Below, in pieces: positions 23,911 through 56,929 of a stretch of 64,000 nucleotides of DNA. This DNA comes from a virus, in the IMG/VR virus record IMGVR_UViG_3300036781_000236, positions 1 through 64,000 of that record. One strand, 5' to 3'. The translations under genes were made by a program, and so were the position numbers. Positions within the stretch are counted from its first letter, which is position 1. Each line of letters opens with the position of its first letter. The notes under the pieces are model-generated. The model saw only the letters and a program-made list of their open reading frames with translations, did not search any database and was not told the DNA's origin.

Positions 23911-23911
23911 A

Positions 23912-23983
23912 AGCGGGAAGAAGGATTCGAACCTTCGACCATCGGCTTAGGATGCCGCTGCTCTTCCACTGAGCTATCCCCGC
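23912..23983 (-). tRNA. tRNA-Arg(CCU)
   Basis: GCGGC-ATCCTAA-GCCGA; GGTTCGAAT T-loop. Confidence 0.88.
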
Positions 23984-23991
23984 GCGACATG

Positions 23992-24030
23992 GACGCTATC
24001 ACGCCCGCGTGAGAGGCCAGCTATACGAAG
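23992..24030. promoter_or_regulatory. Palindrome + 4 bp + CCAGCTATACGAAG; on the minus strand gives extended -10 TGA-TAGCGT ahead of tRNA-Arg
   Basis: Directly visible between tRNA-Ser(CGA) and tRNA-Arg. Confidence 0.75.
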
Positions 24031-24117
24031 CGGAGGAAGTCGGGATCGAACCGACACAGCCCTTACAGGCCATCGCCCTTTTCGAGAGGGGTAAGCACGC
24101 CAGCCTTGCGTTCCTCC
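24031..24117 (-). tRNA. tRNA-Ser(CGA)
   Basis: CCCCT-CTCGAAA-AGGGC; long variable arm; GGTTCGATC T-loop; atypical D-arm. Confidence 0.82.
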
Positions 24118-24121
24118 AAGG

Positions 24122-24733: not shown

Positions 24734-24828
24734 GAGAACGGCTATGTGGTGCGGGTACTCATGAGCGGCACATAGTCGGGATGGTACCACGCTTGCGGTG
24801 CCCCACCCCTATGTGTAGGGTAGCAACC

Positions 24829-25680: not shown

Positions 25681-25683
25681 ACG

Positions 25684-25714
25684 TCACGCGGGCGTGACAG
25701 TCCTGCTATACGAT
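25684..25714 (+). promoter_or_regulatory. Palindrome + 4 bp + CCTGCTATACGAT; -10 TACGAT for tRNA-Leu with palindrome in place of -35
   Basis: Directly visible; tRNA begins 8 nt after TACGAT. Confidence 0.75.
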
Positions 25715-25722
25715 GCTGGTTC

Positions 25723-25805
25723 GCGCGAGTGGTGGAACGGCATACACGATGCGCTCAAAACGCATTGCCCTTCGGGGCTTGAGGGTTCGAATCCCTCCTC
25801 GCGCA
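25723..25805 (+). tRNA. tRNA-Leu(CAA)
   Basis: ATGCG-CTCAAAA-CGCAT; variable arm; GGTTCGAAT T-loop. Confidence 0.93.
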
Positions 25806-25890
25806 CTTAGGTAGAATGGGGCCAGCGGGCGCGAACCCGCCGACCCCGATACGGGGCCACATCACAACCACGACGAAGGAGTAGCCCCGA

Positions 25891-34581: not shown

Positions 34582-35289
34582 TCATCCAGGCCCGAGCGTC
34601 CAATCCACATACAGGGCGCAGTCATCCATGGGGAAGCACACGGCGACACGGCCTGGGTCCACACCCAATCGGTGCTTCTTCCCGAGCAGCGACTGCACCA
34701 GGTCGGGATGCTGCACGAGGGACGGGACCGACCCGAGCGGTGTCTCGCCGTGGTCGCGGAGGAACCTGCCGATGATCTCATCATCGGCGACGAACGACTC
34801 GGGCCACAGCTGTTCGTCCACATAACGGAGCAGGGGGTGGATGAGCCGCACGGGCCAGCACGTAGCTACGGCGCTACACCAACGTGCGGTGGTGAGTTCC
34901 GCCCACGACACCCCTCGGGCGCACGCGCGCTCCATCGCCTGCTTATGCTCGTACGGGTTCCCGCTCACGTGGAACACGAGGACCCTGTCCGGCCTCGCCA
35001 CTATCGCAGCGACCAGGGCTTCCGTGAAGCCCTGACATAGCTCACCGTCGTCCTGCACGACCATGCGGTGCGTCGGTGCGCCTGCGTTCGTGAATCCGCA
35101 CCCGAACCCTGGTGTCGCCTCAAGCACGGCACGGTAGGTGCGCCACGGCGACCGGCGCGGATGATCGGGGGTCGGGTCGAACACCACGTCCGCGCCTGTA
35201 GCGGCGGCGAGTGCAGCGGCCATGTCAGCGCGTGCGGGCGACGCTTGTATCCCGATGCTAACCCTCAACCCAACGTTTAGGTCTATCAC
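34582..35289 (-). CDS. Glycosyltransferase-like protein
   Basis: HRMVVQDDG, ADDEIIG, PSLVQHPDLVQSLLG pattern of phage GT-A proteins. Confidence 0.65.
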   Translation of the reverse strand: MIDLNVGLRVSIGIQASPARADMAAALAAATGADVVFDPTPDHPRRSPWRTYRAVLEATPGFGCGFTNAGAPTHRMVVQDDGELCQGFTEALVAAIVARPDRVLVFHVSGNPYEHKQAMERACARGVSWAELTTARWCSAVATCWPVRLIHPLLRYVDEQLWPESFVADDEIIGRFLRDHGETPLGSVPSLVQHPDLVQSLLGKKHRLGVDPGRVAVCFPMDDCALYVDWTLGPG

Positions 35290-37012: not shown

Positions 37013-37552
37013 CTACGTCTCGGTGATCGACTCAGCCCCAGACACAATCTGGGGAGTGTCACCGGGGTTGATCGCTGTGCTAGTGATAGAGCACCAGTAC
37101 AGGATGTTTCCGCTCGATGCTGCGTCTAGGATCGCGAAGTAGGTGACGGTCTGCAACGACCCAGCGTTCGTGCCGAACGTGATCGCGACGCTGTTTGTCG
37201 TCGCCGACCCCGCGGTCGAGGTGCTGTAGTTCGACGTGTTCGCGGTGACCGCTACACGGGCGTACCCTGTGTAGGAAGCCTCACCGCTCGAAGCGCCCGT
37301 AGACGACGCCGACAGCGCCGATGTCCACAACGCCTGGTAGAGCGTCGCGGGTGGCGTGTATGTGGTGGCGTTGAAGATCGCGTTCAGCAGCTTGCTGACC
37401 AAATATTGGCTCTTGCCCGTCACCCACCGCACGAGGTCGCGGAGACCTGTAGAGGTCGGCTTGAACACCACCGCGCCGCCCGTCACGCGGGCGTGATAGA
37501 CCCGGCCGTCGCGGCCGTGCCACACCAACCCGTCCAGCGATACAGCGGTCAC
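37013..37552 (-). CDS. Virion structural protein (fibre-base/decoration-like)
   Basis: LYQALWT...EASYTGYARVAV...TVTYFAILDAASSGNILY pattern. Confidence 0.65.
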   Translation of the reverse strand: MTAVSLDGLVWHGRDGRVYHARVTGGAVVFKPTSTGLRDLVRWVTGKSQYLVSKLLNAIFNATTYTPPATLYQALWTSALSASSTGASSGEASYTGYARVAVTANTSNYSTSTAGSATTNSVAITFGTNAGSLQTVTYFAILDAASSGNILYWCSITSTAINPGDTPQIVSGAESITET

Positions 37553-37827
37553 TGTGTGCTCCTGATGTCGTCCAGCACCTTCTGCACGGCGGTCATCTCG
37601 TCGGGGGTGACGCTAACCATCGGAGAGCCGTCAGCAGGCACCAGGAGTGCGTACCGTTCATGCTTCCGGTCAGACCACGACTCGTCACCATCGGTAGAGA
37701 CGCGATAGGTGCCGTCGTCGTTCAAGTACAGCCGTTCCCCAAGCGCGTCATAACCCGTGGCAGGGTCGGTGACGACCGAGTAGTGCCACCCGTCCTGGTA
37801 ACACACCGGACCCGTGTAGACGGTCAC
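37549..37827 (-). CDS. Hypothetical protein
   Basis: GTGA-coupled on both sides. Confidence 0.6.
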   Translation of the reverse strand: MTVYTGPVCYQDGWHYSVVTDPATGYDALGERLYLNDDGTYRVSTDGDESWSDRKHERYALLVPADGSPMVSVTPDEMTAVQKVLDDIRSTQ

Positions 37828-39929
37828 GTGGCGTCCTCGGTGACGTAGGACTTCGCGCCGGTTTCAGCGTCGTACTCCACCCGGACACGACGCGCAGACG
37901 CAGCAACAGGCTCAGGGGTCGTGACATGCACATCGACCTGGGCGGCTGGGACATGAACGTCGATTTTCTGCTCAGGCACGTTCACGATGATAGGCGAAGG
38001 CTCCGCCGCCGCCTGCTCCGGCACATGCACCGTGACGTTCGCGACAGGAGCGGGCTGCACAGGCATGTGAACGTCGAAGCGTGGCTCCACCTTCGACCCC
38101 TCCACCGTCACCGCCAAATCGTGCTGTGGGACGTGAACGTGGATGTCGCCAAGTTGGGGCGCTGCGGGTGCAGGACGCGAGGCGAACTCGCGAAGCACCC
38201 CGAGCGCCGTCAATGCCAATGCGTCCCCGGTGCCGTGCGTGCGCTCCGTATGCGCAGACGCGACGAGGGACGCGATCCCTTCCGTGGTTGCCTTGTGAGA
38301 CGCCGCGAGTGCTTCGATACCGGCGCGCAACGCAGGTGACTCCGCTACGTGCGGCAGCGACGCGACGAGCGCCGACACGTCTGGGGAATCAGAGAGAAGG
38401 TTCTGTGTGTCCCCTTCGAGTTCGAGCGGCTGCGTGGCGAGTTCCAGAAGCGTCGCGAACTCAACCTCAGCGGCCGTCTCGTCGGCCTGCTGCTTCTCCT
38501 CCGCTTCCTCCGCGATCCACCGCTCCACATTCGGGAGCGTGAACACGCCTTCGTCGCCTCCTTCCACCCGCGCGGCCACATCGGAGTGGATAGGCTCCGC
38601 GAGTTCAAGGTGCCAGTACTGCAACGCTTGGTCGACGGGATCGAATCCTGTCTCCTGCCCTTCGAGGACACGGTCTTCCTCGTGCTCTGCCCAGTAGGCG
38701 TTCAAGGCTTCCTGGGCGTCCACGGCGATCTCTTCGATCATCACGCCAGCGTGAACATCATGGGCGGCCGCGACCATAGCTTCGTCGTCTGTGGTGATTG
38801 CTTCCGCACCATTGTTCTTGCGTGCGTACAACTCCGCGAGGGTCGCGCCTTCCACGGCGTCCTCACCAGCCCATGCTGCTACTTCGTCGGCGGTCATCGG
38901 CAGGAACTCGATCTGCGACGCGCACCGTCCCGGCCGGGTGACGGCAGGATGCAGCGTCCCGAGTTCGTCGTTCGTCGTGACCAGCGCGAGTACCCGGAGG
39001 CCCTGCCCGATCATGCCGTCCACTACGTTCAGGAGCCGCGACAGTCCCTGCCCGTACTTCTCCTTCGCGGTAGCGGACAGCAGCTCCCCCGTGTCTTCCA
39101 GGATGAGGACACGCCACTTCCCGAGCGGGTTGCTTTCCGCGTACACGTCGCCGCTGACGGGTTCGAGCATGTCGTAGCTGTCCGCGAGCAGCACGTTGAT
39201 CATGTAGGAGGGGTCGTCCACGAAGAACGAGTCGGGGTCGGTGATGTAGTGGAACTCGGCCCACGGTGCCCACTGCGACGCAAGCGCCCGGAGCGCCCAC
39301 GACTTCCCTGTGCCGGGCTGTCCCTGCCAAAGCAGCAGCTGGCCGTCAACCGTCTCGGGTGCGTCCCACGCCATGAGCGACCCGAGCGAGTCACGGACAT
39401 GGGAGGTGTAGTTCTGCTCGATGTCGCCCCACTGTGCGGACTCCACACGACGGAGGCGCGGGATAGGGCCGTGCTTGCTGTTCGCCCAGAACGTGATCGG
39501 GACGGTCGCGTTGTCCTGCGTCAGATACGACGCGGGATACGCCTGCCTGAATGCAGCGCATGCGGTGTCTACCTGCGTCTGACTGTCTCCTGCGACGCGC
39601 ACATTGAACCAACCGTCCCCGATGCTGATAAGCGCGAGCGCACCGCTGTTTGTCGCTACAACCGCCGATCCCCTGTCTACGAACAGCACGTTCTTGGACG
39701 GAAGCCCTGCGCTACTAGCTTCGATAGGCCACGAGTCGCCGCCCCAAACCGGCGACTCCCTCTGCAACGCGTGCTCCTTGAAGAACTTCTCCGCTGCTCC
39801 GCCGTACAACATGTCGTACGTCGGGAGCATCGCTGGGGCCGCAGCCGTGAGGCTACGGAACGCGGCACGGCGACGCTGCGAAAGCGTGCGCGGCTGCCGC
39901 TGCCCGACCTTCACACTGGCGCGACCCAC
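37824..39929 (-). CDS. AAA+ ATPase (DUF5925-like) fused to acidic region and VHV-repeat C-terminus
   Basis: GQPGTGKS, ILEDTGELL, LSRLLNVVDG, TTN...LHPAVTRPGR second region of homology. Confidence 0.85.
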   Translation of the reverse strand: MGRASVKVGQRQPRTLSQRRRAAFRSLTAAAPAMLPTYDMLYGGAAEKFFKEHALQRESPVWGGDSWPIEASSAGLPSKNVLFVDRGSAVVATNSGALALISIGDGWFNVRVAGDSQTQVDTACAAFRQAYPASYLTQDNATVPITFWANSKHGPIPRLRRVESAQWGDIEQNYTSHVRDSLGSLMAWDAPETVDGQLLLWQGQPGTGKSWALRALASQWAPWAEFHYITDPDSFFVDDPSYMINVLLADSYDMLEPVSGDVYAESNPLGKWRVLILEDTGELLSATAKEKYGQGLSRLLNVVDGMIGQGLRVLALVTTNDELGTLHPAVTRPGRCASQIEFLPMTADEVAAWAGEDAVEGATLAELYARKNNGAEAITTDDEAMVAAAHDVHAGVMIEEIAVDAQEALNAYWAEHEEDRVLEGQETGFDPVDQALQYWHLELAEPIHSDVAARVEGGDEGVFTLPNVERWIAEEAEEKQQADETAAEVEFATLLELATQPLELEGDTQNLLSDSPDVSALVASLPHVAESPALRAGIEALAASHKATTEGIASLVASAHTERTHGTGDALALTALGVLREFASRPAPAAPQLGDIHVHVPQHDLAVTVEGSKVEPRFDVHMPVQPAPVANVTVHVPEQAAAEPSPIIVNVPEQKIDVHVPAAQVDVHVTTPEPVAASARRVRVEYDAETGAKSYVTEDAT

Positions 39930-39932
39930 CGT

Positions 39933-42104
39933 CTACGCCTCGATGGAATCAGCGAGTTCCGCGATCTCGGCCATCGCGGCCTGGCACTCCGCACCGCACA
40001 CGATCCCGGCGGCCGTCAAAGACATCACCTCGGGTGCTTCACCCGACGCGACCACGGATGCGCGGGTGCGGGGGATCGGGAACCCAGGCACGTTGACGGC
40101 GAGCGCGGCGACGAGTTCGAGGTTGCCGTTCACGTTCCGCCAGTCCCCCGACAGTTTCGCTGCCCGCAACACACGGATCGTTTCCTCCGACGTGCCGGGA
40201 CGAACAGCCCCCGCGACCCAGATGCCGTGCTCGTCCTCACCGCACGCCACATCCGCCACCACAGTGCCTGTGTGGTCGTAATGGGCGGCCGCGGCGGCCT
40301 GACCCAACCCCGATGACGCATGGCCGGTGCCGAGGGTGATGTTCCCGACTGGGACACGCTCCCCGTCCGCACAGGCGATCTCACCGAGCATGTAGTAGGC
40401 GTAATCGGTCTTCGACCGTGGCGCGTACACGTGGTTGTCTGGGAACGCGATGTGCGGGACGTTCCACTCAGCAGCATGGCCGTACACCTGCCCGTCGTCG
40501 GTGACGGTGAGCGGCTGCGGCCCGTCGAACTCGGGGTTCGCGAACCACTCCACGGGCGGGCGAACGGGGATCTCGGTCTCGACCGCGGAAGCGACCAGAG
40601 CCGCAGCGTTCCGTACCGGGGTGACGCGGTAGCCGCCCTGCGACGTGACTGTCCACATCGCTTCGAGCTGCGTCGAAGCGACCAGCGACGACGCAAGCTG
40701 GATCGTGGCTTCAGCGAACGCCTGGAACGGGCACGCGGTCGCCATACCGATAGTGGCGTCAGCGACGACGATGATCGTGTCGTCGCCCTTCTCCCCAAAC
40801 GCGATGTCGATGAGGGAGGGTGCGTCGGTTTCGTCGTCGGGCTTCGGTGCCCACACGCCTTCCGCGTCGAACCAGTCGCTTTTCGGCCCCACATCGTACT
40901 GATGCACCGCCAAGTCCACGCTGATGCCGCGCAACGTGCCATCTCCGACCATGCGGGCGATCATCTGCCCGAACTCGCCGTCATCGAACACACCCGACGC
41001 CTGGATCAGATTCCCTTCGCGCCAGATGTTGTCGATCCGTCCCGCGACCTGAGCGCCATCGTGGCCGCCCTCCGCAGACGTTTCGACCAGGCCCATGAGG
41101 GTGAGCGGCAGGTCACGCCACGAGATGCTGTCAGGAGCGAACGCACGGTTGTCCGCCGTCATCGCGGCCTCCGGTGCAAGGGTGGCGGTCCACTGCATCT
41201 GCGCAGATGCCTTATCCGAACCTGTCGGCACCTTCGTGATGTCAGGCAAGCGCGGCGACGGGTTCCGCTTCGGGATACGACTCGACGGCTTATGCGCGTC
41301 GATCAGCGGAATACCGTCGTCGCCCGCGAACGTGAGAGCGAATCGTGCGAGGGTGTCACGCAACGGTGTGTCCTGACCGTCACGGACAGTGACGTACTCC
41401 GCGATCTCCGCGATCAGGCCGTCCACCGCAGCGGCAGCGAGGTCTTCGCCGTCCATGTCCGTCGTCTCGAATCCGTCGCAGTCACAACCGAGGGCGGAGC
41501 ATGCACCCATGTTGCCGTCGCCGCCATGCATGCCGTCAGGGTGGCCGCAGTCACCGTCAGCGCACACCGCCGTGTTCGCGACGGCTGCCAACTCCTCTGT
41601 GTCGGCCTCGGCATTCGCGTTGTCGTCCTTCCACGGCACGGTGATGGTGTCGTCCTCGTACTTCTTCGCGGCTGCCTTGTAGTAGCCCTCCACTGCCGTC
41701 TTGATCTTGGCCTTGTCGGCGTCCGGGATGTCAGCGCCGCCACGGGCACCCGAAAGCACACCCGCGACCGCGGTGACAGCCTTCCAGACGGCGTGCTTGC
41801 CGCCGTCCTTCGACACGAACGGGAACTTGTACGACGACTTGACCGCAGGGTCACCGTCGGAGTCCTTCCACATGAAGCAGTCCGCGTCGGCGGGAAGTTC
41901 GTAGTCCTTCGTGGCCGCGGGGCCGTCCCACGCCTCGTCGCGCGCGCCGAGCGGAAGACCGTCCGCTCCGCTCGCGTCAGCGGTGATCGCCGCGAGTTCC
42001 GCGACCTGCTCCTCAGTGAACGCAGGGATGCGCTTCTCGGCCGCCACACGTGCGGCGGCCCTACGTGCCCTACGACGAGCCTGTGCGGCTCCAGATCCAG
42101 CCAT
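39933..42104 (-). CDS. Capsid maturation protease, multidomain
   Basis: TADNR...LPLTLM...GHDGA..AGRID...LRGISVD; second domain HYD...GED-HGIWVAG...LSGDWR; lies between MuF-like gene and MCP. Confidence 0.8.
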   Translation of the reverse strand: MAGSGAAQARRRARRAAARVAAEKRIPAFTEEQVAELAAITADASGADGLPLGARDEAWDGPAATKDYELPADADCFMWKDSDGDPAVKSSYKFPFVSKDGGKHAVWKAVTAVAGVLSGARGGADIPDADKAKIKTAVEGYYKAAAKKYEDDTITVPWKDDNANAEADTEELAAVANTAVCADGDCGHPDGMHGGDGNMGACSALGCDCDGFETTDMDGEDLAAAAVDGLIAEIAEYVTVRDGQDTPLRDTLARFALTFAGDDGIPLIDAHKPSSRIPKRNPSPRLPDITKVPTGSDKASAQMQWTATLAPEAAMTADNRAFAPDSISWRDLPLTLMGLVETSAEGGHDGAQVAGRIDNIWREGNLIQASGVFDDGEFGQMIARMVGDGTLRGISVDLAVHQYDVGPKSDWFDAEGVWAPKPDDETDAPSLIDIAFGEKGDDTIIVVADATIGMATACPFQAFAEATIQLASSLVASTQLEAMWTVTSQGGYRVTPVRNAAALVASAVETEIPVRPPVEWFANPEFDGPQPLTVTDDGQVYGHAAEWNVPHIAFPDNHVYAPRSKTDYAYYMLGEIACADGERVPVGNITLGTGHASSGLGQAAAAAHYDHTGTVVADVACGEDEHGIWVAGAVRPGTSEETIRVLRAAKLSGDWRNVNGNLELVAALAVNVPGFPIPRTRASVVASGEAPEVMSLTAAGIVCGAECQAAMAEIAELADSIEA

Positions 42105-42188
42105 GACCGATTCCCCTTTTCCAGATGGACGGTGAAAGTTCCGTGGGCCGTAGGCTAGCGCGGCGGGGTGGTAGCTCCACACCCACCC

Positions 42189-42217
42189 TTGACTTCGTAT
42201 AGCAGGCTAGGTATGGT
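42189..42217 (+). promoter_or_regulatory. Promoter cassette TTGACT-17-TATGGT with TTCGTATAGCAGG box
   Basis: Same cassette as 8174 and 33689, with shared GTCACGATC leader. Confidence 0.85.
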
Positions 42218-42249
42218 TGGGGAGTCACGATCCACCAAGGAGGCACACC

Positions 42250-42648
42250 ATGAGCAAAGAAACACTTCTGCTTCAGGAGTACGGGTTCGGCGGTAAGCGC
42301 GTTCCCGATCTCACCATCGAGGTTGAGTACCGCAAAGCGCCGTACTACGACCACGACACCACCTACGCGCCCGACCATCGCGGCAAGACGCTGACGGCGT
42401 ACGACGTGTATGTGGACGGAACCCTCACAGGACGTATCCGTCAGACCATCGCGTCAACGGACAGGAACTACAACACGATCCGTGTTCCTGGACGCGGCAA
42501 AATCGCGTGGTCGTGGGATCGCAAGCACACAGCAGGACCGAACCGACAGGATCGCACCAGCAACTACCCTGGCCTCTACAGAACTTCCAAGCGCTCCGCG
42601 GTTGGCGACATGATGGGATACGGATGCGCCACGAAGGTTGCATCGTGA
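42250..42648 (+). CDS. Hypothetical protein
   Basis: RBS AAGGAGG; first gene of antisense island. Confidence 0.7.
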   Translation: MSKETLLLQEYGFGGKRVPDLTIEVEYRKAPYYDHDTTYAPDHRGKTLTAYDVYVDGTLTGRIRQTIASTDRNYNTIRVPGRGKIAWSWDRKHTAGPNRQDRTSNYPGLYRTSKRSAVGDMMGYGCATKVAS

Positions 42649-42848
42649 GTGTCGTCGCGCGAGTCTACGACAGCGGCGGCATCACGGAGCACACCGACAC
42701 CGTGCAGATCGCCACGCTCGTAGCGTCACTCAACCTCGCAGGCTTCGAGATGAAGCCTCACGGATCAGTTAGGGATCGCGTGCAGATGCGTAACGAAGCA
42801 GCCGGTGTCGACATCACCCTGTCCCTTCTCAAGAACGAGGATGCATGA
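42645..42848 (+). CDS. Hypothetical protein
   Basis: GTGA/ATGA coupling. Confidence 0.55.
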   Translation: MSVVARVYDSGGITEHTDTVQIATLVASLNLAGFEMKPHGSVRDRVQMRNEAAGVDITLSLLKNEDA

Positions 42849-43306
42849 GCTACGACTTCTCCGCACGTATCGACACGGGCGGCCCGTACCCGCACTACAT
42901 CGAACCGTCCTTTGATGACACCCACCCTGGTCTAGCTACCAACGGGGTCGAGGGTTCCACCGTGGCCTTCTACCCGGAGGGAGGTTACACCCGCATCGGG
43001 AACTACACCTCGAATGTCTCCCCGATCTGGGCGCGCTGCCTCACGAAAGCCGCGCTCAGCATCCGGTACCCGAAGCACCTCCCAGACGGGGATATGTGGC
43101 TGTCCGACATCGACGGCGAACGCCTCGGTGACATCACGACGCTTCTCCACGCCGCCGTCGAGTACGGCATCGACCACCTCGAAGATCTGCGCGAACTGGA
43201 ACCCGAGAACAGGTGGGGAAACGCGGAAGGCGCGATCACCTACCTGTGGGACATCCAGCGGTTCAGCGAGATGCACCCCAACGCGTTCCTGAGTCTGAAT
43301 CGCTAA
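42845..43306 (+). CDS. Hypothetical phage protein
   Basis: MSYD...NYTSNVSPIW...LEPENRWG pattern recurrent in phages. Confidence 0.7.
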   Translation: MSYDFSARIDTGGPYPHYIEPSFDDTHPGLATNGVEGSTVAFYPEGGYTRIGNYTSNVSPIWARCLTKAALSIRYPKHLPDGDMWLSDIDGERLGDITTLLHAAVEYGIDHLEDLRELEPENRWGNAEGAITYLWDIQRFSEMHPNAFLSLNR

Positions 43307-43399: not shown

Positions 43400-45076
43400 C
43401 TACTCCGCTTCCGCGTCGTCCCCGCTCATATAACCAAGCGTGCAACGACAGTTGATCACCGATCCCGCCTCACCGGATGGGTCACCTGGGAACATGAGCG
43501 AGTCGCCGTCCACGTCGAAAGGAGCGTCGAGGGGCTGCGTTTGTCCGTCAAGCCCGTCCACAAGTTCATGGCGCGGGTAGATAGCTCCCTCGGCGGTCAT
43601 CCACACCTTGCTTAGCTTCGAGTTCCCGCCGGTCGCGGCGTCAATGGCTTGTGTCGCGGCGAGGCTCCCGCCCCCTGTGGCCCCGGCGAGGGTGGTGCGG
43701 GCGATAGTGACAGCGCGGGTGTAAGACTGCTCGTTCATCCCTACCTGGATCGCCCTAGCGGTGTCCGGGATCGACAAGCCCTGGTCGTAGGACGCCTGCA
43801 CGATCTTCGTGACGTTGTCCAACGTCGTCTGCGCGATGTTAGGGATCTGGCTCGCGGTGTTCGCGATCTCCTTCGCGACATACGGGTTGCTCACATCGAA
43901 GCTGACCCCTGCGCTTTCCAAACTGGCTTGTGTGACCGAACGAACCATCGCCTGCCGGACAGGCTCCGTCTTCGTGCGTAGCGAGAAGATCAGCGCATCC
44001 ACGTCCAGCATTTCGGCAGGGGCCGGGGCGCTCCACACGGGGTTACCGGCGGACGCCGCGTACAGATCAGCTTGGGCGTCGCGGAGGTTCGCCTTCGCCG
44101 CCTCAACATGCTCGGGGCTGCTTCCGTCGGATAGGGCGGTGCGGAGTTCGCCCTTAGCTTCCTCGACGGCCTTGTGGCGTGCCGCCAACTGCTCCGGGGT
44201 GAGCGTGGCGGGAGGCTGCTTCTTCGCGGCTGCGGCCGTCAACGGCAATCCCCCGGTGAGCGGCAGCGTGATCTCGACCTGGTCGCCCCGGACTACGTAG
44301 AGCGCATCGAACGTCAATGGAAGCCCGAACACCGTTGCGGTGTCGGGCGCGTCGGGTGTGCCAGTGGATGCGTGCGCTTCGAAGCCGTGGTCGCGGGCGT
44401 ACTCGACCCCGTACTTCACCAGTGCCTGCGTCACCGCTACCCGCAGTTCGACCAGACCTGGTACGTCGGGAAGGAGGATGCCGATGGTGTCGCCGTCTGG
44501 TTTCCCGAACTCGCCGCTACCTGCCACCACACCCGTCAGGGGACCGCAGTTCGCAGCGACCAACCGCAATGCGTCACCAAGCATGTCGAGTGGCCCATCG
44601 ATCTCCCCGAGCGACGCCAATGTGACGTGCAGCATCCCCGCTGGGTCACCGCCAGGGACAGTGAGCGCAGCGGATTGCTCCGCAGTAGGTTTCAGACAAA
44701 CCATCGTGCTCAACGGTGTCGGAGCCGCCGCCGTCAACGCCAATGACGCAACGAGCGACCGGACATCAGCGGGCGCGAGTCCTACGAGCGCCGCCATGTC
44801 CGCGTCCCGACGTGCCGAAGCGGTGAGGTGGTTCGTCACTGTCGCCGTGAAGTTCGCGGCTGCGTCACGGCCTGCTTTCCGCAGGATCGGTTCGAGCACC
44901 TTCACCATCCGCGGCACCAGATCGTCGGCGCGCTTATACCCAGCCTGGATGACACGGTTGTGGTGCGCCGCCGATGGTGCGACAGGGACAGCCTTCTCTG
45001 GCTTCGGCTGCGTCGCTTCCACCGCTTCCGCGGTGGTCTCCTTGACGGAGCGGTACTCGGGCATCTGGACGCCCAA
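43400..45076 (-). CDS. MuF/SPP1 gp7-like minor head protein with inserted 2H phosphoesterase domain
   Basis: C-terminal RAVTIART, KVW, H...DGQ, LMFPGDP...INCRC; internal LHVTL and AHAST motifs. Confidence 0.85.
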   Translation of the reverse strand: MGVQMPEYRSVKETTAEAVEATQPKPEKAVPVAPSAAHHNRVIQAGYKRADDLVPRMVKVLEPILRKAGRDAAANFTATVTNHLTASARRDADMAALVGLAPADVRSLVASLALTAAAPTPLSTMVCLKPTAEQSAALTVPGGDPAGMLHVTLASLGEIDGPLDMLGDALRLVAANCGPLTGVVAGSGEFGKPDGDTIGILLPDVPGLVELRVAVTQALVKYGVEYARDHGFEAHASTGTPDAPDTATVFGLPLTFDALYVVRGDQVEITLPLTGGLPLTAAAAKKQPPATLTPEQLAARHKAVEEAKGELRTALSDGSSPEHVEAAKANLRDAQADLYAASAGNPVWSAPAPAEMLDVDALIFSLRTKTEPVRQAMVRSVTQASLESAGVSFDVSNPYVAKEIANTASQIPNIAQTTLDNVTKIVQASYDQGLSIPDTARAIQVGMNEQSYTRAVTIARTTLAGATGGGSLAATQAIDAATGGNSKLSKVWMTAEGAIYPRHELVDGLDGQTQPLDAPFDVDGDSLMFPGDPSGEAGSVINCRCTLGYMSGDDAEAE

Positions 45077-45269: not shown

Positions 45270-45437
45270 TCACTGCTTCCTCCGTGGCGGTGAACCATCG
45301 ATCTTGTCGAAAGCCCGCTCGGACGCCTTGCCTACCTCATCGACAGTGGTCTCTACCGCCTCGACAGCTTCCGCGACGATGGTCAACGGAGCCGTGATGA
45401 CTTCACCGACGATCCTCCCGAGAAGCTTCCCGATCAC
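45270..45437 (-). CDS. Small hypothetical protein
   Basis: GTGA-coupled to portal stop (3' part of ORF 45270..45587). Confidence 0.45.
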   Translation of the reverse strand: MIGKLLGRIVGEVITAPLTIVAEAVEAVETTVDEVGKASERAFDKIDGSPPRRKQ

Positions 45438-47383
45438 GCCGTCACCTTCCCGTTCGCAGCGGCAGCAACCCTGTTCGTCAACGACGCCGACACCGGGGCC
45501 GGGAGCGTCTCGAACAAAGTTCGTGACGCGTGCAACTCGACGTTCGACACGAACAACTCCACCATCGCCGTGTCCGTGACGTGACATGACCGCAACGCTT
45601 CCTCGATCATCCCTCGCGCACCCGCGACCAGCTGCGCAGGCTGCTGCTTCGTCAACGTCTTCACGCGATCCGCACCCAGGGTAGCCGCGACAAGGTTCGC
45701 GCGTACCCCGTCGATCAACGCCAACGCGTCCGGGTCCTTCTTCGCGAGGGACCGGAGCTTCGACCCGGCGAGTTCGCGGGCACGATACACCGCCAGTTCC
45801 GCCGCGATAGACACGGCCGCCGTCGCGGCCGATCCGATCACCTCGCCGCTGATCGGCTGCGGCGGCTTTCCCTTCGTCGTCTCCGACGCCGACCCGCCAG
45901 GGCCACGCACCGGAGCGGACGTTACGCCACCCGATCCGCCATCCGCACCACCTGTGTCCGGGGTTTCGAGCACGCCAGGCGCGATCTCCAGTTCCGACCC
46001 TGGACGCAGTGACGGTGTCCCGTACACCGCCAAACCAGGGTCGCGGAGCTTGATCCCCAAGTACACGTTCCGTTCCTCAGGGGACGGCGCATCGGCGTCA
46101 TCGAACCCCTTCGACTTCCGGTACGTGTCATCGCTGATCGTGCCCCGGTCGAACGCCTCATCAGCAGCAGCGCCCCGGTCAGGGTGGTTGATGATCGCGG
46201 ACGCGTCGTAGTCGATGCAATAGGTCTGCCAATCAGCGACACCCATATCGCTAAGGTAGGGACGCAGGTAGGACTGCGTGAGGTCGGACACCAACTGTTG
46301 CGCCATCGGCTGCAAGTGCGCCTTCCACGTGCTCTCATCGACCTGCCATGCGTTCCAGTGCGTCAGGTCCCCCATCCCTGTCAGGATCTCCGCTGGAAGG
46401 TCGAGTCCGATAGCGATACGACGGATGCATTCCTCCCTCAATCCTGTCTCCGGATACAGCTGCACTGGGTCGACAAGCTCCATGTGGTACACAAGATCCT
46501 TGAGGGATTTATTTTCTGGGACAGGGACGCGCATGATCAGCGGAACAACAGCGGACGCTGACCCTTCGTTCTCGATGGAGGCAGTCATAGCGTCCGTCAG
46601 GTCCTGCAAGAAAATGTCGTTCAACGGGTCTTCGTCACCCAGCGGTTCTAGCGGGGTCTGTGACAGGGCGTCGTCTATCCACAGAATCCCGTTCCCTGCC
46701 TGCCGTGAACGGGCGCGCGCGCGGACGACGGCGGTGAGTAGCACGAGTTCTTCCACGAGCAGGAGGACACCGGCCATTGAGGAGTCCGCGAGTGCCGACC
46801 ACCTCGGCGACCGCTTCCACAGCCTGTACGCGACAGCGCTGTCGTCATCAACGGGGAAGAAATCCTCGTCCTTCACCTCGTGGTAGTTCTGGATCATGAT
46901 CGACGGTGCGCGGTACCGCATGATCACGCCGTCCATGACGCGCAACTCGTCGGTGGACAGAACCTCCCACTGCTCCAACCCGGTGAACGGGTCGTTGCTC
47001 ACGAGGAGGTACGCCTCCCCGGTGAGAAACATGAGTTTGCCGTACTGCTGCTGCAACCCGTTCCGCTGCCCCTTACCTCCGCCGGGGTCCTGGATACGGG
47101 CGAGCGCGTCAACGACGTTCTGATTCGTGGTGGGCTTGATCTCCCCGTCAGGTTGGATCTGCGCAGGTAGCAGCGTCAGTAGGCTCATGGCGTGCCCGAC
47201 GTAGTTCGCGGCGTACTTGATCTCCCCCACCATGTCGTAGTACGACAGGGCGCGGGTCTGCCACGGCTGGATCAGGCGGCGCATGATCTGCGCGTCCCGC
47301 TGATGCACCCGTACCCCGGCGGCCGTCAACGATGCGGGATTACCGATCCGCATCCCTGGCTTCTTGCGGCTAAACCACCCCAC
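45434..47383 (-). CDS. Portal protein
   Basis: WQ..A..YYD-VGEIKYA, TGEAYL, SRQAGNGILW, CIRRIAIGLDLPAEILTG...HWNAW. Confidence 0.85.
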   Translation of the reverse strand: MGWFSRKKPGMRIGNPASLTAAGVRVHQRDAQIMRRLIQPWQTRALSYYDMVGEIKYAANYVGHAMSLLTLLPAQIQPDGEIKPTTNQNVVDALARIQDPGGGKGQRNGLQQQYGKLMFLTGEAYLLVSNDPFTGLEQWEVLSTDELRVMDGVIMRYRAPSIMIQNYHEVKDEDFFPVDDDSAVAYRLWKRSPRWSALADSSMAGVLLLVEELVLLTAVVRARARSRQAGNGILWIDDALSQTPLEPLGDEDPLNDIFLQDLTDAMTASIENEGSASAVVPLIMRVPVPENKSLKDLVYHMELVDPVQLYPETGLREECIRRIAIGLDLPAEILTGMGDLTHWNAWQVDESTWKAHLQPMAQQLVSDLTQSYLRPYLSDMGVADWQTYCIDYDASAIINHPDRGAAADEAFDRGTISDDTYRKSKGFDDADAPSPEERNVYLGIKLRDPGLAVYGTPSLRPGSELEIAPGVLETPDTGGADGGSGGVTSAPVRGPGGSASETTKGKPPQPISGEVIGSAATAAVSIAAELAVYRARELAGSKLRSLAKKDPDALALIDGVRANLVAATLGADRVKTLTKQQPAQLVAGARGMIEEALRSCHVTDTAMVELFVSNVELHASRTLFETLPAPVSASLTNRVAAAANGKVTA

Positions 47384-49441: not shown

Positions 49442-49822
49442 CTACTCTGCCGTCCACGGCTCTCGTGGGTCTGTGATCTGCCAAAGATGAAAGACGTGGT
49501 CTTGCTGCGGTACGTTCACGTACACCTCACGTGGCGGTAGCAGCATCCCGAACGTCAACTCTGGGTCGAGGAGCCTGTATCGCGCGGTCTTGATTTCGTC
49601 CCATGACGGATGCCGTGTCGGGTGGGAGATGGAGAGATGCCACAGGTACTCGCCGTTCACACCAGCGGGTTCGCGTCCGAGCAGTATGGAGCATTCGCCC
49701 ATCTCGAACAGACTGGCTTTCATCCCCATTCGCTTCATCACGTCAGGGAGAGCGCGCTGAGTGAACCCGGCTTCGACGTAGCCTGGTTCATGGCTGCCAG
49801 GGATCGGCTCCTTGTACGGCAT
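49442..49822 (-). CDS. Conserved phage hypothetical protein
   Basis: WHLSISHPTRHPSWDEIK...LPP...YVN...FHLW. Confidence 0.7.
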   Translation of the reverse strand: MPYKEPIPGSHEPGYVEAGFTQRALPDVMKRMGMKASLFEMGECSILLGREPAGVNGEYLWHLSISHPTRHPSWDEIKTARYRLLDPELTFGMLLPPREVYVNVPQQDHVFHLWQITDPREPWTAE

Positions 49823-50655
49823 TAGATCGGTGCGGGGTCGTAGATCATGCTGCTGTCCGCGTACGGGTCAGGACTGTAGAACCACGTCGTGAAATGATCG
49901 CCGACGCGCTGCTCCCACTCCGCGAGCGCCGCCGGATCGTCGGGCGGCAGGCCATGCATCCGCCAGTGCGCCCCCACGGACTCGTCCATAGCGGTGAGCG
50001 CATAGGCTCGCGCACCTGTGGCGATCTTGCGGACGTACTGCTCCCGTGTGCGCCAGCTGTAGTGCCGCACCACAAGACCCGGGGCCGCGGGTGCGATCCC
50101 CGGCAGGTACGCGGAGTGGTTCCCCATGTGGATGATGAGTCCGTCGCACAACCGGACGCACACCTTCGGGAGCGGTGCCCGCTCCCGTTTTCGCCACCCG
50201 ATGCGGCGGAACGGGTTCGGTTCGCTGCTCACCAGTTCGTCTGTGAACCTGTCCCGCTCGAACTCCAGCGGGTCGATAGCCGTAGGGATGTGGTTGAACA
50301 ACTCGGTGGTCACGACACGAATGTCGGGGGCCAGACCATCGAGGTAGACGCGGATCGGGCGGTTGTCGGTCGTCATCCACGCTTCGTCCAGATCGGATGC
50401 GACAGCCCACGTGAACCCCATGTTCAGCGCCCGTGCCGCGAGGGCACTCATCTTGTCCGACTGCTGGTACGCGGGGTCGGGGTCGTCAATGAGCGTGATC
50501 GCGTCCCCGAACGACGCCATGATCTCGCGTGTCCCGTCTGTGCTGAGATTGTCCGCGACGATCAGGTGGTCGACCTGGGTGAGCATGTGCTCGCACCATG
50601 CCTGAGCTATGTCGGCTTCATCCCTCGCCATCGCTATCGCTACGCAAGCGCTCAC
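49822..50655 (-). CDS. Glycosyltransferase family 2-like
   Basis: ARDEAD, VADNLSTDGT, SDLDE, HMGNH, HYSWR. Confidence 0.88.
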   Translation of the reverse strand: MSACVAIAMARDEADIAQAWCEHMLTQVDHLIVADNLSTDGTREIMASFGDAITLIDDPDPAYQQSDKMSALAARALNMGFTWAVASDLDEAWMTTDNRPIRVYLDGLAPDIRVVTTELFNHIPTAIDPLEFERDRFTDELVSSEPNPFRRIGWRKRERAPLPKVCVRLCDGLIIHMGNHSAYLPGIAPAAPGLVVRHYSWRTREQYVRKIATGARAYALTAMDESVGAHWRMHGLPPDDPAALAEWEQRVGDHFTTWFYSPDPYADSSMIYDPAPI

Positions 50656-50836
50656 TTCGACATCTTGTACGTTAGGACAGATCCGATGATGGCACCGCAC
50701 CCTGCTAGTACAAGCATGAGAGACAGAGGCCACGCCCCTACCTGATGGTTCCCATCCACGATCATCGTCGGTAACGCCACAGGGAGCGCTGCCCAGTATG
50801 TCCCCATCAGAAATCCCCACAGGACGAAGCATGTTC

Positions 50837-51313
50837 TCATGCTTCGTCCTCGCCGTCTTCGAGTTCGTAGAGCACACGGTCATGCTCACCCAACATCCAC
50901 TGCTCCTTGAACGCCGCCTGGTTGTAGGTCGGCATGTACCCGGTACCGCCCGTGGCGGCAAGGAACGCCGCCGCGTACGGCAGACGGTGCGTGCCCACGG
51001 TCTTGCGCGGTGACCCGTCAGGACGGTACGGCTCGAACGTGTACCTCACTGCGCGGCTTCCGGTTGCACGGCCGCCGAGTGCCTTGACGGCTTTCCGCCA
51101 CGCCGAGCGGCACTCGGAGCACTTGAGCGCTTCAACGTCGAACATCGAGCCGCCGGGGGCGGATGCCCTTTCGGGGTCGTTGCCGAAGAACGGATCGTCT
51201 GAGGTGTCGGGCGGCGAGCAGATCGTCCCGTTCAGAGCGATGTTCATTAGGGATTCCAGCACCTCGATGGCCGCGTCCGGATCGGGATCTTGCACAGGAG
51301 ACACTGTAATCAT
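50837..51313 (-). CDS. Hypothetical protein
   Basis: ATGA-coupled. Confidence 0.55.
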   Translation of the reverse strand: MITVSPVQDPDPDAAIEVLESLMNIALNGTICSPPDTSDDPFFGNDPERASAPGGSMFDVEALKCSECRSAWRKAVKALGGRATGSRAVRYTFEPYRPDGSPRKTVGTHRLPYAAAFLAATGGTGYMPTYNQAAFKEQWMLGEHDRVLYELEDGEDEA

Positions 51314-53460: not shown

Positions 53461-54108
53461 TCACGCGGGTGTGACAGGCCACGCAACGGTGCAGATCACG
53501 TCACGGTCGTACTCGTCGCGGTAGCTCATCTCACCGCTCGGCGCGAGCGGTAGCACCGTCCTGTCTTCCGTGAGGTCGACCGTCCAGATAGACGTGCCCC
53601 CCGGGACATGCAGCCGCTCAATCCCGAACACGGCGTTGACGGCTTCGGCGACTCCTGGGAACCCTGCGCCCTCACCGGGGTAGTAGTCGTGTCCGCACAA
53701 CAGCCTCCGGGTTTTCGGGAGCCAACCTGCGATGTCCGCCAACACCGCCTCGTAAGTGTGGGCACCGTCGATGAAACACATATCCACGTCCGGCACGTCC
53801 ACGGCGACAGCGGGGCTGAGGCCACGTACAGCGTGGAGGTTCGCGAACCTGCCGCAGTGCCCCATGAAACTCCCGAACGACACGTCATGCTCGTCGTCCC
53901 ATGTGTCGATGCACCACACTGGCCCCTTGCATCCGGTGAGAAGCGCGGTGGACGAGCGGCCGTGCAAGCAACCGATCTCGGCAACGCTCCCCATCGTTTC
54001 CGCGGTGGCGCGTAGCCACCTCAGTTCGATATCTGACATCCACCCTGGCACGTCGAGTCCGGCCACGTCGGTGCCGTAGGTTGGTTCGGGTCCCATGATC
54101 GGAGTCAC
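53461..54108 (-). CDS. Class I SAM-dependent methyltransferase (Methyltransf_24-like)
   Basis: AEIGCLHGRS, IDTW, FIDGAHTYE, CGHDY. Confidence 0.88.
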   Translation of the reverse strand: MTPIMGPEPTYGTDVAGLDVPGWMSDIELRWLRATAETMGSVAEIGCLHGRSSTALLTGCKGPVWCIDTWDDEHDVSFGSFMGHCGRFANLHAVRGLSPAVAVDVPDVDMCFIDGAHTYEAVLADIAGWLPKTRRLLCGHDYYPGEGAGFPGVAEAVNAVFGIERLHVPGGTSIWTVDLTEDRTVLPLAPSGEMSYRDEYDRDVICTVAWPVTPA

Positions 54109-54843: not shown

Positions 54844-55551
54844 TTAGACGGGGAGGCAGAGGAGGTTGCCCCACCCATCCGACACTTCTCCGTGCGACAG
54901 GTTCGCGGCGTCCAACGCTGCCTCCACCGTCGCCTTGTACGTGTCACGGGCGTCACCGTCGAACATCGGGGCGTGCGTCGCCAACATCACCGGGACACGC
55001 AGGGTGGCAAGGAACGGGGCGGCTTGCGGCAGAATCGCCTCCTCCCCACCCTCCACGTCGATCTTCACCAGGGAACACGCCCCAAGACCGAACCGCTCGA
55101 ACAACCCTTCCAGGGTGAGCGCGGGCACCTCGACACGGTCGGTAGCGTGGAGCATGCTCGACATCGAATCCCCCAACGCACCCAACGGGTGACGGCCGAT
55201 CCACCCGGTGCCTGCCTCCGCACCGACCATGCCTTCCCACACTGTGATATCGGCGTCGTTCCAGTTGGCGTGCTCGCGCAGTTGGTGGCACGCGACGGGG
55301 TCTGGTTCGACGGCGTACACCTTCGCCCCGAGCTTGGCGGCGTACAGGCTGACGGGGCCGATCCACGCACCAACGTCCACGAGCACGTCCCCTGGTCGCA
55401 GCCGTTCGTTCAGGACACCGATGGTGTCTGTTTCCCAGGAGTGCTGGAACTGGTCCCAGAACGCGGCCTCGTGGGGTTGTCCGCTGTCGGCGTCAGGGTC
55501 ACGGACAGTGAAGATGTGGCCGTCACGGGTAACGGTGCGCCGCTCGCTCAT
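54844..55551 (-). CDS. FkbM-family methyltransferase
   Basis: VDVGAWIG, AVEPD, KIDVEGGE. Confidence 0.9.
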   Translation of the reverse strand: MSERRTVTRDGHIFTVRDPDADSGQPHEAAFWDQFQHSWETDTIGVLNERLRPGDVLVDVGAWIGPVSLYAAKLGAKVYAVEPDPVACHQLREHANWNDADITVWEGMVGAEAGTGWIGRHPLGALGDSMSSMLHATDRVEVPALTLEGLFERFGLGACSLVKIDVEGGEEAILPQAAPFLATLRVPVMLATHAPMFDGDARDTYKATVEAALDAANLSHGEVSDGWGNLLCLPV

Positions 55552-56225
55552 GGCGTCACGGTACCGTCGAGGACTGCCCGCATCTTCTCACGGGAGCCGC
55601 GGGACGCGAGATAGAGACGGCCAAGCGCTTGGTTTGCTGCATGCGCTGGGTGCCCTTCGCGGCTCTCCCACACACGAGGATGCCACAGGTGATAGACGGG
55701 GCCAGGGATGCGTTGGTGTCCGCCGCCCATCACGTCGCAGGCAGCGAAGAACGCCCAGTCGTCCCAGCCCCACCCGGCGAGTCGTTCATCGAACCCGCCT
55801 ACGTCGTCCCACAAGCTGCGTGGCACGGCGAGCGCGGACGAGTACGTGTTCTTCTCGGTGCGTTCAACCATGAACTCATCGATCTTCCAGCCGCCCTGCA
55901 ACCGTGCCGTGCCCTGCTGCGACAGATCCCGGATCTCGCTATGGGCGAACGTCAGTTGTCCTGTCTCGCGGGCGCGTGCGACGGCATCGACGTACTGGAG
56001 GTGCTCCCCCAAGATCACGTCGCCGTCGATGATGAGCGCTACGTCCCAGTCACCTGCTTCCACGGCCGCGGTGTTGATCGCTTTGCCGCGGTTGAACAAC
56101 CCATCCGTGTCGTGCCCTTCGATGATGGGCCACCCGAGCCACGCCCACCACTCCCTCGTGAACTCCCATAGCCGGTCGCGGTGCCCACCATCGGGACGCC
56201 AGGGAACAAGGATCGGGACGGTCAA
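55548..56225 (-). CDS. Glycosyltransferase (GT2/galactosyltransferase-like)
   Basis: LVPWR, FNRGKAIN, IDGD, GGFDERLAGWGWDD, HLWHP. Confidence 0.88.
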   Translation of the reverse strand: MTVPILVPWRPDGGHRDRLWEFTREWWAWLGWPIIEGHDTDGLFNRGKAINTAAVEAGDWDVALIIDGDVILGEHLQYVDAVARARETGQLTFAHSEIRDLSQQGTARLQGGWKIDEFMVERTEKNTYSSALAVPRSLWDDVGGFDERLAGWGWDDWAFFAACDVMGGGHQRIPGPVYHLWHPRVWESREGHPAHAANQALGRLYLASRGSREKMRAVLDGTVTP

Positions 56226-56884
56226 CGGTGCTCCGCGAGGTACGCGAGGGTGGCGGCGCGGTCGAAGCGACGGTCGCGATAGTCGCGATACAAAGTATGG
56301 TTGCGCTCGTACAGGTCGTTCCCGCGCGTGACCCCCGGTGGGTTCGGGTGCCACAGGTGGCATACCGGCCCGTCGACCACACGGGGCGGACCGGCCAGAC
56401 CGTGCAGACACTCTAGGATGGCGCTGTCCTCAAGCCCGAAGCCGGTGAATCGCTCATCGAAGCCGCGGCTCTCTTCCCACAGGTCGCGGCGTACCCCAAG
56501 CAAGCTCACGCCCGTGAACGGGTTGACTGTCCATGCGTCCGCGTGTTCCAACTGGATCTCGCCGCTCAGGACACGCGGGGTGTCGTGCTCGGTGAGCATG
56601 CGGAAGTCGGTCGCTCCTGCGTACCCGTAGAAGTACGCCTCCTCCGCAACTTTGCTAGCGACCTCGGGTGGGCACGCGATCTCGGCGTCCGTCCACAGCA
56701 CCACGTCCCAGGACAAGTCATCGTCAGGCACGGCACGGTTCCGCGCGACTGACCAGTTGAAGTCACCGTCGCTGTCCCCGGTGTGCAACTCGTACCCCAT
56801 CTGCGTCCAGCGTGGGAGCGTGTACTCCCAGATCGAGGCGCGGTCCACGGTGGGACGAGCAGCGCAACACACCACGGCTTTCAC
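56222..56884 (-). CDS. Glycosyltransferase (GT2/galactosyltransferase-like)
   Basis: FNWSVARN, TDAE, GFDERFTGFGLED, HLWHP; leaderless GTG. Confidence 0.85.
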   Translation of the reverse strand: MKAVVCCAARPTVDRASIWEYTLPRWTQMGYELHTGDSDGDFNWSVARNRAVPDDDLSWDVVLWTDAEIACPPEVASKVAEEAYFYGYAGATDFRMLTEHDTPRVLSGEIQLEHADAWTVNPFTGVSLLGVRRDLWEESRGFDERFTGFGLEDSAILECLHGLAGPPRVVDGPVCHLWHPNPPGVTRGNDLYERNHTLYRDYRDRRFDRAATLAYLAEHR

Positions 56885-56891
56885 AGCAGCG

Positions 56892-56929
56892 ACGCTATCA
56901 CGCGGGCGTGATAGCACTGCTATACGAAG
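56892..56929. promoter_or_regulatory. Extended palindrome GCTATCACGCGGGCGTGATAGC + CTGCTATACGAAG box; minus-strand TGA-TAGCGT extended -10
   Basis: Directly visible; GTG start 7 nt after TAGCGT. Confidence 0.8.

Follow-up and report, generated by a model that had tools for sequence, protein, structure and literature searches.

The DNA analysed here, referred to as the window, is the first 64 kb (positions 1 to 64,000) of the 87,998-base virus record IMGVR_UViG_3300036781_000236, which IMG/VR classes as 'linear' and estimates to be 92% complete. The window has a GC content of 62.5%, and its minus strand holds most of the genes. Our subject is a minus-strand gene at 43400..45076 that encodes a MuF-type head protein with an embedded 2H phosphoesterase (558 residues from a TTG start), referred to below as MuF-2H. 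An alternative ATG start lies four codons later, at 45064, and is the one used in the database gene call (P0002, 554 residues). Assignment by PHROG gives, in order along the minus strand, the portal, MuF-2H, a 749-residue 'head maturation protease' protein, a 701-residue protein and small head proteins, followed by the major capsid protein (30395..32326), a head-tail adaptor, the major tail protein and the tape measure. One 64-residue open reading frame (ORF) separates the portal from MuF-2H. IMG/VR loci share this succession of portal, MuF-2H and protease, placing MuF-2H in a head-morphogenesis module beside the portal; an alignment-based scan of IMG/VR recovered 22 loci with the same gene order, and a single-protein search found no close relatives. 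The record probably represents a phage of ~88 kb with a host among the Actinomycetota. The nearest cultured phages infect Actinomycetota, yet they are distant, with portal identities of at most 35%. No cultured phage in INPHARED covers 80% or more of the MuF-2H protein, and at the DNA level an 8-kb region matches Gordonia phages over ~115 nt only.

Read from its N-terminus, the MuF-2H protein is a series of discrete parts, all on the minus strand, as are the protein-coding genes described later unless stated otherwise. A conserved helical segment (residues ~35–83; 44828..44974) is found in forms of the protein with and without the 2H domain, and is possibly a targeting or portal-binding segment. 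When the N-terminal 112 residues were searched alone, no PHROG family was matched (best E 0.16). The segment ends at site 1, H-L-T-A-S (residues 83–87; 44816..44830), the first of three copies of a short motif. Site 1 is followed by a spacer that is variably present in the alignment of homologs (residues 88–111; 44744..44815) and by site 2, A-L-T-A-A-A (residues 112–117; 44726..44743), which lies directly upstream of the 2H phosphoesterase domain (residues 118–276; 44249..44725). This domain, with a predicted LigT/ThpR-like fold, carries the catalytic motifs H150-V-T152 (context LHVTL; 44621..44629) and H235-A-S237 (context AHAST; 44366..44374). Directly downstream of it is site 3, P-L-T-A-A-A (residues 277–282; 44231..44248). 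A charged helical linker (residues 283–345; 44042..44230), present in the closer relatives only, then leads to the MuF core (residues 346–558; 43403..44041), which has a conserved CxC-R-C motif at its end. Residues 360–552 match the PHROG family phrog_2468 'head morphogenesis', with an E-value of 5.8e-38 for the full protein and 1.2e-38 for the core alone, and the Pfam family Phage_Mu_F (PF04233) is found or precomputed in many homologs.

A first-pass annotation of this DNA, made from the sequence, had described HVT and HAS motifs ~85 residues apart between ALTAAA and PLTAAA. All of these elements are located as described, and the two catalytic motifs are 85 residues apart. The interval given there for the domain, 44249–44719, corresponds to residues 120–276, the stretch between the two flanking motifs. 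The HLTAS copy at residues 83–87 is an additional one.

Fold and active site of the 2H domain

The 2H domain was modelled with a predicted local distance difference test (pLDDT) score of 88.9, falling to 65–70 in the region of site 2. A sequence search against solved structures was uninformative (best E 1.3), so a fold search was needed. The highest structural-match score was to the D. radiodurans CPDase (5h7e; 17.8, with a root-mean-square deviation of 2.7 Å over 153 aligned positions), followed by T. thermophilus TT0787 (1iuh; 17.2), a LigT-like protein of P. horikoshii (1vdx; 16.0) and several entries for E. coli LigT/ThpR (14.4–15.7). Rotavirus VP3 and AKAP18 (13.7), Usb1 (12.9), MHV ns2 (11.9) and a phosphodiesterase of Burkholderia phage BCSR5 (11.5) came next, with Acb1 (7t26; 10.4) and the penguinpox cGAMP phosphodiesterase (9.7) further down. 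Foldseek was concordant, returning 59 PDB matches at E ≤ 0.001. The top matches in a library of viral protein models (BFVD) were actinophage proteins labelled 'RNA ligase', 'structural protein' or 'capsid morphogenesis protein', from Gordonia phages GMA6, Tardus, Lilbeanie, MelBins and GMA2 and from Microbacterium phage OneinaGillian; Acb1 entries appeared at ranks 27, 37 and 49. The first-pass annotation had proposed a 2H enzyme of the Acb1/LigT kind. Its 2H assignment is confirmed by this comparison with Acb1 and ThpR, and the modelled domain is, beyond reasonable doubt, a bilobed 2H fold, which appears closer to LigT/ThpR than to Acb1.

The resemblance does not extend to orthology. The score against TIGR02258, the ThpR equivalog model, is 12.7 against a cutoff of 65.7, and identity to E. 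coli ThpR/LigT, TT0787 and CPDase (5ldm, 4qak, 1iuh, 5h7e) is 17–21%. These cellular enzymes stand alone; the present domain is built into a virion protein. Judged by these sequence scores, the domain has the ThpR fold yet is no ThpR orthologue. PHROG families named 'RNA ligase' match it with an E-value of 5e-8.

Differences from Acb1 (T4 gene 57B; Erwinia phage FBB1, 7t26/7t27) are also seen at the sequence level. Both are phage-encoded 2H folds, and degradation of cyclic oligonucleotides by the same chemistry is plausible. The published account of FBB1 Acb1 describes a C-terminal lid with a Trp and an aromatic cage of Y12, W74, F107 and W147 that stacks on the bases (Hobbs et al., 2022, PMC9117128). 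Residues 118–276 of MuF-2H contain no Trp, and the C-terminus of the domain continues into the PLTAAA linker instead of a Trp-bearing lid.

We aligned 28 homologs (45–82% identical). H150, T152, H235, T280 and A281 are invariant among them, as are further Gly, Phe and Arg positions, and both H-x-[TS] motifs are present in all 28. The second motif has a Thr in most homologs versus a Ser in this phage; H-x-S is a normal variant of the motif in 2H enzymes such as Usb1. By its sequence, the domain is expected to be catalytically intact.

An insertion cassette and its flanking motifs

Relatives that lack the 2H domain define its boundaries. The 2H family PF13563 is carried by 85 of the 92 homolog clusters, and two proteins without it, P0009 (367 residues) and P0017 (308 residues), are 70–71% identical to the window's protein. 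In the alignment both lack residues ~87–283, exactly the stretch from site 1 to site 3, so that site 1 (...NHLAA) is followed at once by the sequence that succeeds site 3 in cassette-bearing forms (AG(A/K)KPPPSVTPEEL...). When P0009 is compared with the cassette-bearing P0006, a clean gap of 200 residues separates two flanks that are both 90% identical. The contig that encodes P0009 is 1.4 kb long. The empty form (P0017, P0206) is also found on 48-kb and 74-kb contigs from several sources, and is thus not an assembly artefact. Site 1 is the upstream edge of the indel and site 3 the downstream edge. Stand-alone 2H homologs have the same limits, starting at the first strand and stopping at the P-L-x-G that precedes site 3. 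In the DNA, the two flanks are imperfect direct repeats of 39 nt, 72% identical and spaced 495 nt apart. The 2H module, described as inserted in the first-pass annotation, is a true insertion cassette bounded by the motifs, and its presence is polymorphic among near-identical phages.

The same annotation had called the flanking motifs cleavage-like. The repeat alone is weak evidence for this, as any repeated pentapeptide arises in 29% of 5000 shuffles of the MuF-2H protein, which is 16% Ala; two or more copies of LTAAA arise in 0.04% of the same shuffles. What gives the motifs weight is their conservation across the 28 aligned homologs: all have site 3, 27 have site 1 and 18 have site 2.

Their distribution over the window points the same way. 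LTAA occurs six times in 85 ORFs (17,584 residues) versus 1.6 expected from shuffles, and five of the six fall in four adjacent head genes, at residue 19 of the portal, about residues 114 and 279 of MuF-2H, residue 722 of the 749-residue protein and residue 27 of the 701-residue protein. The broader pattern L[TV]A[AS][GA] occurs eight times in these four genes (2657 residues; once at the portal N-terminus, three times in MuF-2H and twice each in the protease and the 701-residue protein) and once in the other 81 ORFs (14,927 residues). None of 2000 shuffles of the four head proteins reaches eight (mean 0.22), a statistic that is partly circular and weaker for it, given that the pattern was written after the sites had been seen. 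The independent test of the motif is the LTAA count outside MuF-2H only.

The motif also holds its position in the neighbouring proteins. The portal (649 residues; 45434..47383; phrog_776, E 3.5e-98) has S-L-T-A-A-G at residues 18–23 (nt 47315–47332), and [LIM]-T-A-[AS]-G is at the aligned position in all 12 sequences from the window and 11 loci. The 749-residue head-maturation protein (39933..42182; phrog_18402, E 3.5e-62) has A-L-V-A-S-A at residues 528–533 and S-L-T-A-A-G at residues 721–726 (40005..40022); the latter, near the C-terminus, is kept as L-[TVL]-A-A-G at the aligned position in 12 of 13. The 701-residue protein is AAA ATPase-like (37824..39929; Pfam AAA, E 2.5e-7; DUF5925, E 1.1e-8) and has S-L-T-A-A-A at residues 26–31 (39837..39854), where all nine aligned sequences have L-x-A-[AS]-[GA]. 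In all three proteins the terminal side of the motif is variable and gappy and the inner side is conserved, which is the pattern expected of a propeptide boundary. The motifs behave like processing sites, and their placement is conserved in portal, protease and AAA protein alike. An AAA protein in a head module that is possibly processed like a head protein is unusual.

A candidate for the enzyme that would recognise the motif is encoded next to MuF-2H. Residues 300–749 of the 749-residue protein were modelled from 13 sequences with low overall confidence (pLDDT 60), giving two folded domains with disordered linkers between them. The first (residues ~316–501; 40680..41237) has a fold resembling the gp21/assemblin proteases, suggesting that this gene encodes a prohead protease of that type; the second conserved domain spans residues 544–732. 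Both motifs of this protein (528–533 and 721–726) lie in stretches with pLDDT below 50. NCBIfam gave a weak match to a prohead protease/major capsid protein fusion (E 0.0077). Pfam returned nothing at E ≤ 0.01, a sequence search of the PDB returned nothing, and Foldseek on the model returned no match at E ≤ 0.001. Residues 1–300, with an Arg-rich start and a Cys/His-rich cluster (CADGDCGH...CSALGCDCDG), match no family. Herpesvirus assemblins cut at (V/L/I)-x-A↓S, which is similar to L-T-A↓A/S. The L-T-A-A motif is most likely the recognition site of this neighbouring prohead protease.

Proposed packaging, release and substrate

The reading that we favour, with a probability of about 0.55, is that the 2H domain is an exchangeable cargo carried by MuF, freed by the prohead protease, injected, and active in the new host. 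MuF would bring the enzyme into the prohead. The gp21/assemblin-like protease would then cut at the L-T-A-A flanks and free a 2H enzyme of ~17 kDa inside the capsid, and on infection the freed enzyme would exit together with the DNA, in the manner of Alt and the internal proteins of T4. A few molecules could hydrolyse their substrate before any phage gene is expressed. That substrate would be a phosphodiester within the 2H repertoire, such as 2',3'-cyclic phosphate ends or nucleotides, 2'-5' linkages, or immune signals made of cyclic oligonucleotides. Counter-defence would be the most probable purpose. Capsid-carried enzymes act before phage genes are read, which would make them a distinct and little-tested layer of counter-defence.

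The steps differ in how firmly they can be held. Packaging of the 2H domain in the capsid is probable, given what is known for MuF proteins such as SPP1 gp7 and Mu gp30, as summarised in PMC5512222. Cleavage at the motifs is somewhat better than an even bet, and injection stands at the same level. For the substrate we favour no single class: an anti-signalling activity and RNA-end processing or RNase activity are equally tentative, and some other substrate is only slightly less probable than either. Three points are in line with an anti-signalling or RNase role: the presence/absence polymorphism of the cassette among near-identical phages, the published statement that RNA ligases never accompany this 2H clade (PMC5512222), and the search of the 88-kb record (estimated 92% complete) for RtcB, a PF09414 ligase and Tpt1, none of which was found there.

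T4 provides a precedent for such a route. T4 Alt and the internal proteins IPI–III are trimmed by the gp21 prohead protease and have a capsid-targeting sequence; the gp21 site motif is L/I-x-E. The proposed logic is the same here, with packaging through a head-protein handle, a gp21-type cut and injection; the carrier (MuF), the effector (2H) and the site motif (L-T-A-A) differ. Packaging of Alt in the head and its injection are described in PMC5512222.

More broadly, L-T-A-A-(G/A) could be the cleavage code of the prohead protease in this lineage, with effectors plugged into existing sites so that the site is duplicated, and cassettes exchanged by recombination at the motif. We place this proposal slightly short of even odds. 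If it is true, inserts bounded by the motif in genes for portal, MuF or protease would point to injected counter-defence enzymes throughout the actinophages, and the site would be a natural slot for loading cargo into capsids.

Several observations weigh against the favoured reading. The family assignments by Pfam are weak, with 2_5_RNA_ligase2 on residues 145–240 scoring 17.8 bits (E 0.0035) against a cutoff of 27, and Phage_Mu_F on the MuF-2H protein scoring 12.6 bits against a cutoff of 29.6. The assignment of the neighbour as a protease depends on a weak model. Site 2 is not universal among the homologs. The motif is found shortly after the MuF core and before a C-terminal effector in only 3 of 29 longer homologs, so processing is no general rule for all cargo of the family. 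The ninth match to the broader pattern, S-L-V-A-A-G-G at residue 317 of the major capsid protein, is the only one outside the four head genes and lies in the middle of the protein, which is odd for a cleavage site. Finally, the region of site 3 is modelled fairly confidently (pLDDT 86 for the block 171–180), which means that it may belong to the fold or pack against the 2H domain.

These last points suit an alternative in which the 2H domain stays attached for good. In that case the L-T-A-A motifs would be structural or docking elements, such as short strands binding the portal or the capsid interior, and the enzyme would work while tethered to MuF, either within the capsid or at the portal as the DNA is ejected. 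The inferred status of cleavage, the confident model at site 3, the match within the capsid protein fold, and the majority of long homologs with no motif before their C-terminal effectors all favour a tethered enzyme. What such an enzyme does not account for is that the motifs of the portal, AAA and protease proteins lie 20–30 residues from a terminus in the manner of propeptide boundaries, that those in the protease model are in disordered linkers, and that the cassette indel ends exactly at the motifs. We consider a permanently tethered enzyme somewhat unlikely.

A role in RNA end-healing is a little less probable still. Here the domain would be a ThpR/LigT-type RNA 2',3'-cyclic phosphodiesterase, and would repair tRNAs or further RNAs cut by metal-independent ribonucleases of the host (anticodon nucleases, HEPN RNases or toxin RNases, for example) in partnership with a host ligase. 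The LigT/ThpR-like fold is what such an enzyme would have. The TIGR02258 score, far below its cutoff, argues against it, as do the searches for RtcB, PF09414 and Tpt1 given above; the corresponding search for PF09511 (T4 Rnl1) was uninformative, since its control gave no match. According to Iyer et al. (2017, PMC5512222), this 2H clade is never associated with RNA ligases. The tRNA genes bear on the question as well, as the first-pass annotation had raised a possible link to split tRNAs. ARAGORN finds a cluster of seven tRNA genes (Pro, Gln, Glu, Asp, Arg, Ser and Leu) at 23126..25806, and Rfam finds six at the gathering score, all as full-length matches. With every detected tRNA whole, the split-tRNA idea has no support.

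An improbable alternative is a Usb1-like ribonuclease that would attack RNAs of the host or of defence systems, such as CRISPR RNAs, as the phage enters: the structural match to Usb1 is weaker than those to LigT or CPDase, and Pfam and PHROG find no RNA-binding accessory domain in the MuF-2H protein. A 2H domain without catalytic activity, serving the head protein as structural filler, can be set aside almost entirely, as all 28 homologs, the most distant at 45% identity, retain both His and both Thr/Ser positions, even though the second motif is H-A-S and not the commoner H-x-T.

Homologs, published proposals and other genes of the region

We asked how often such 2H domains are attached to head proteins. 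When residues 103–284 were searched against 1.84 billion cluster representatives, 1499 proteins matched with E ≤ 1e-3, of which 64 reached E ≤ 1e-30. Among the best 150 of the 1499, nearly all are proteins of 450–2550 residues, and stand-alone domains are a handful. Pfam analysis of 35 longer representatives of the 2H clade found the 2H domain in all 35 (E ≤ 0.001), MuF in 20, ADP-ribosyltransferase in 14, zeta toxin in eight and DUF3626 in six, with GNAT and other domains in fewer. These long proteins are the 'polyvalent' MuF proteins of the literature.

Fusions on other head-assembly proteins are found as well. In Microbacterium phage ValentiniPuff, gp7 combines 2H with Peptidase_S78_2, and MuF is a separate gene without 2H. 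Gordonia phage Lilbeanie likewise has a separate MuF gene without 2H; its gp16, annotated 'RNA ligase', 'head maturation protease' or 'capsid maturation protease', has a protease-annotated domain followed by a C-terminal 2H domain. The 2H domain is the only Pfam match in gp16, its protease label coming from the annotation and from likeness to the second domain of the 749-residue protein. Lilbeanie gp16 also has HLTAAG at residues 7–12 and several L-[TV]-A-A-[GA] motifs, one of them ~25 residues before the 2H domain. The closest bacterial relatives of the 2H domain (34–45% identity) are from Nonomuraea, Planomonospora, Streptomyces, Kitasatospora and related Actinomycetota. Two prophages were examined, from Nonomuraea and Streptomyces, and both have fusions of Peptidase_S78 and 2H; the Streptomyces one adjoins an HK97-type capsid gene. 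All of these actinophage and prophage fusions belong to the same 2H clade (28–45% identity) and, as here, place the enzyme on a head-assembly protein; in ValentiniPuff and the prophages that carrier is a Peptidase_S78_2 or Peptidase_S78 head-maturation protein and not MuF. Comparison of these sequences suggests a recurring theme, a 2H enzyme attached to a protein that enters the prohead.

Several parts of this interpretation are already in print. Iyer et al. (2017, PMC5512222) describe 2H domains in polyvalent proteins, fused to MuF or portal and never found with RNA ligases, and propose that such domains are Usb1-like RNases or degraders of the nucleotides of defence systems. Iyer et al. (2022, PMC9503650) take the fusions to suggest packaging in the head and injection against (oligo)nucleotide immune signalling. 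A MuF-linked 2H domain that is packaged, injected and degrades immune nucleotides is therefore a published computational hypothesis, which the interpretation in the first-pass annotation rediscovers. The domain pair, the late-gene context, the lack of a ligase partner and the proposed role are the same in these papers and here. The position of the cassette between the N-terminal segment and the MuF core, the empty-site relatives and the shared L-T-A-A motif are not described in the parts of the two papers compared, and the supplementary architectures of the 2017 paper may show something similar. What is new here is the detail of the motif-bounded cassette, and the gene adds to a published class of 2H-MuF proteins. 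A literature search brought up no experiments on 2H enzymes borne by MuF or on how they are processed.

MuF polymorphic toxins (Jamet et al., 2017, PMC5576092) are related in that MuF carries variable enzymatic modules in both cases. The modules of those toxins are C-terminal, whereas here the module is N-terminal to the MuF core and there is no C-terminal effector; a term search of that paper found no mention of phosphoesterase, RNA ligase, 'cleaved' or 'proteolytic'. Longer homologs of the window's protein do have C-terminal domains, either ADP-ribosyltransferase or zeta toxin.

With the idea of a head-packaged 2H enzyme already published, the gain lies in detail and testability rather than in kind. 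The locus is a clean natural experiment: its 2H enzyme is small and well folded and has intact catalytic residues, close relatives either carry or lack the module, and there is a candidate protease code. If the motif is a cleavage site, it would serve as a working rule by which packaged effectors could be recognised in the genomes of actinophages, including cultured SEA-PHAGES isolates whose annotations currently call the domain 'RNA ligase' or 'capsid maturation protease'.

Some relatives of MuF-2H carry further insertions. In P0003, a metagenomic homolog that is 85% identical, an insertion of ~340 residues splits the conserved C-N-C/R-C motif that ends the MuF core. It has a weak match to the intein family PF14890 (E 2e-4, below the cutoff), and P0082 has a precomputed intein match, so by sequence the P0003 insertion may be an intein in a head protein. 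P0003, P0005, P0008, P0012 and P0063 have an extra Cys-rich segment at the N-terminus (MGEIPASVHY...C..C...C...C) that is like a small zinc ribbon and is absent from the window's MuF-2H protein.

The head module has other features outside the four motif-bearing genes. On the plus strand, between the MuF-2H and protease genes, is a pair of ORFs at 42217..42648 (143 residues) and 42845..43306 (153 residues) that resembles an inserted, moron-like pair. Neither Pfam nor PADLOC matches this pair, and the only match is a weak one to a PHROG of unknown function (phrog_8795, E 1.2e-6). The PADLOC defence families also gave no match for MuF-2H or the AAA protein. The major capsid protein at 30395..32326 has 643 residues (NCBIfam MCP_Sipho, E 1.8e-83), and its residues 315–368 resemble small ORFs upstream of the portal in two of the related loci, L003 and L004 (44% identity, 54 residues). 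A 179-residue head-module protein (37013..37552) matches Pfam Gp80, 'Podophage GP4 fiber I protein' (E 6.3e-27), and is a 'head protein' in PHROG. In and around the structural region, PHROG and Pfam identify three glycosyltransferase-like genes (34582..35289, 49822..50961 and 56222..56917) and two methyltransferase-like genes (53461..54108 and 54844..55551), all on the minus strand, which may modify the virion or the DNA.

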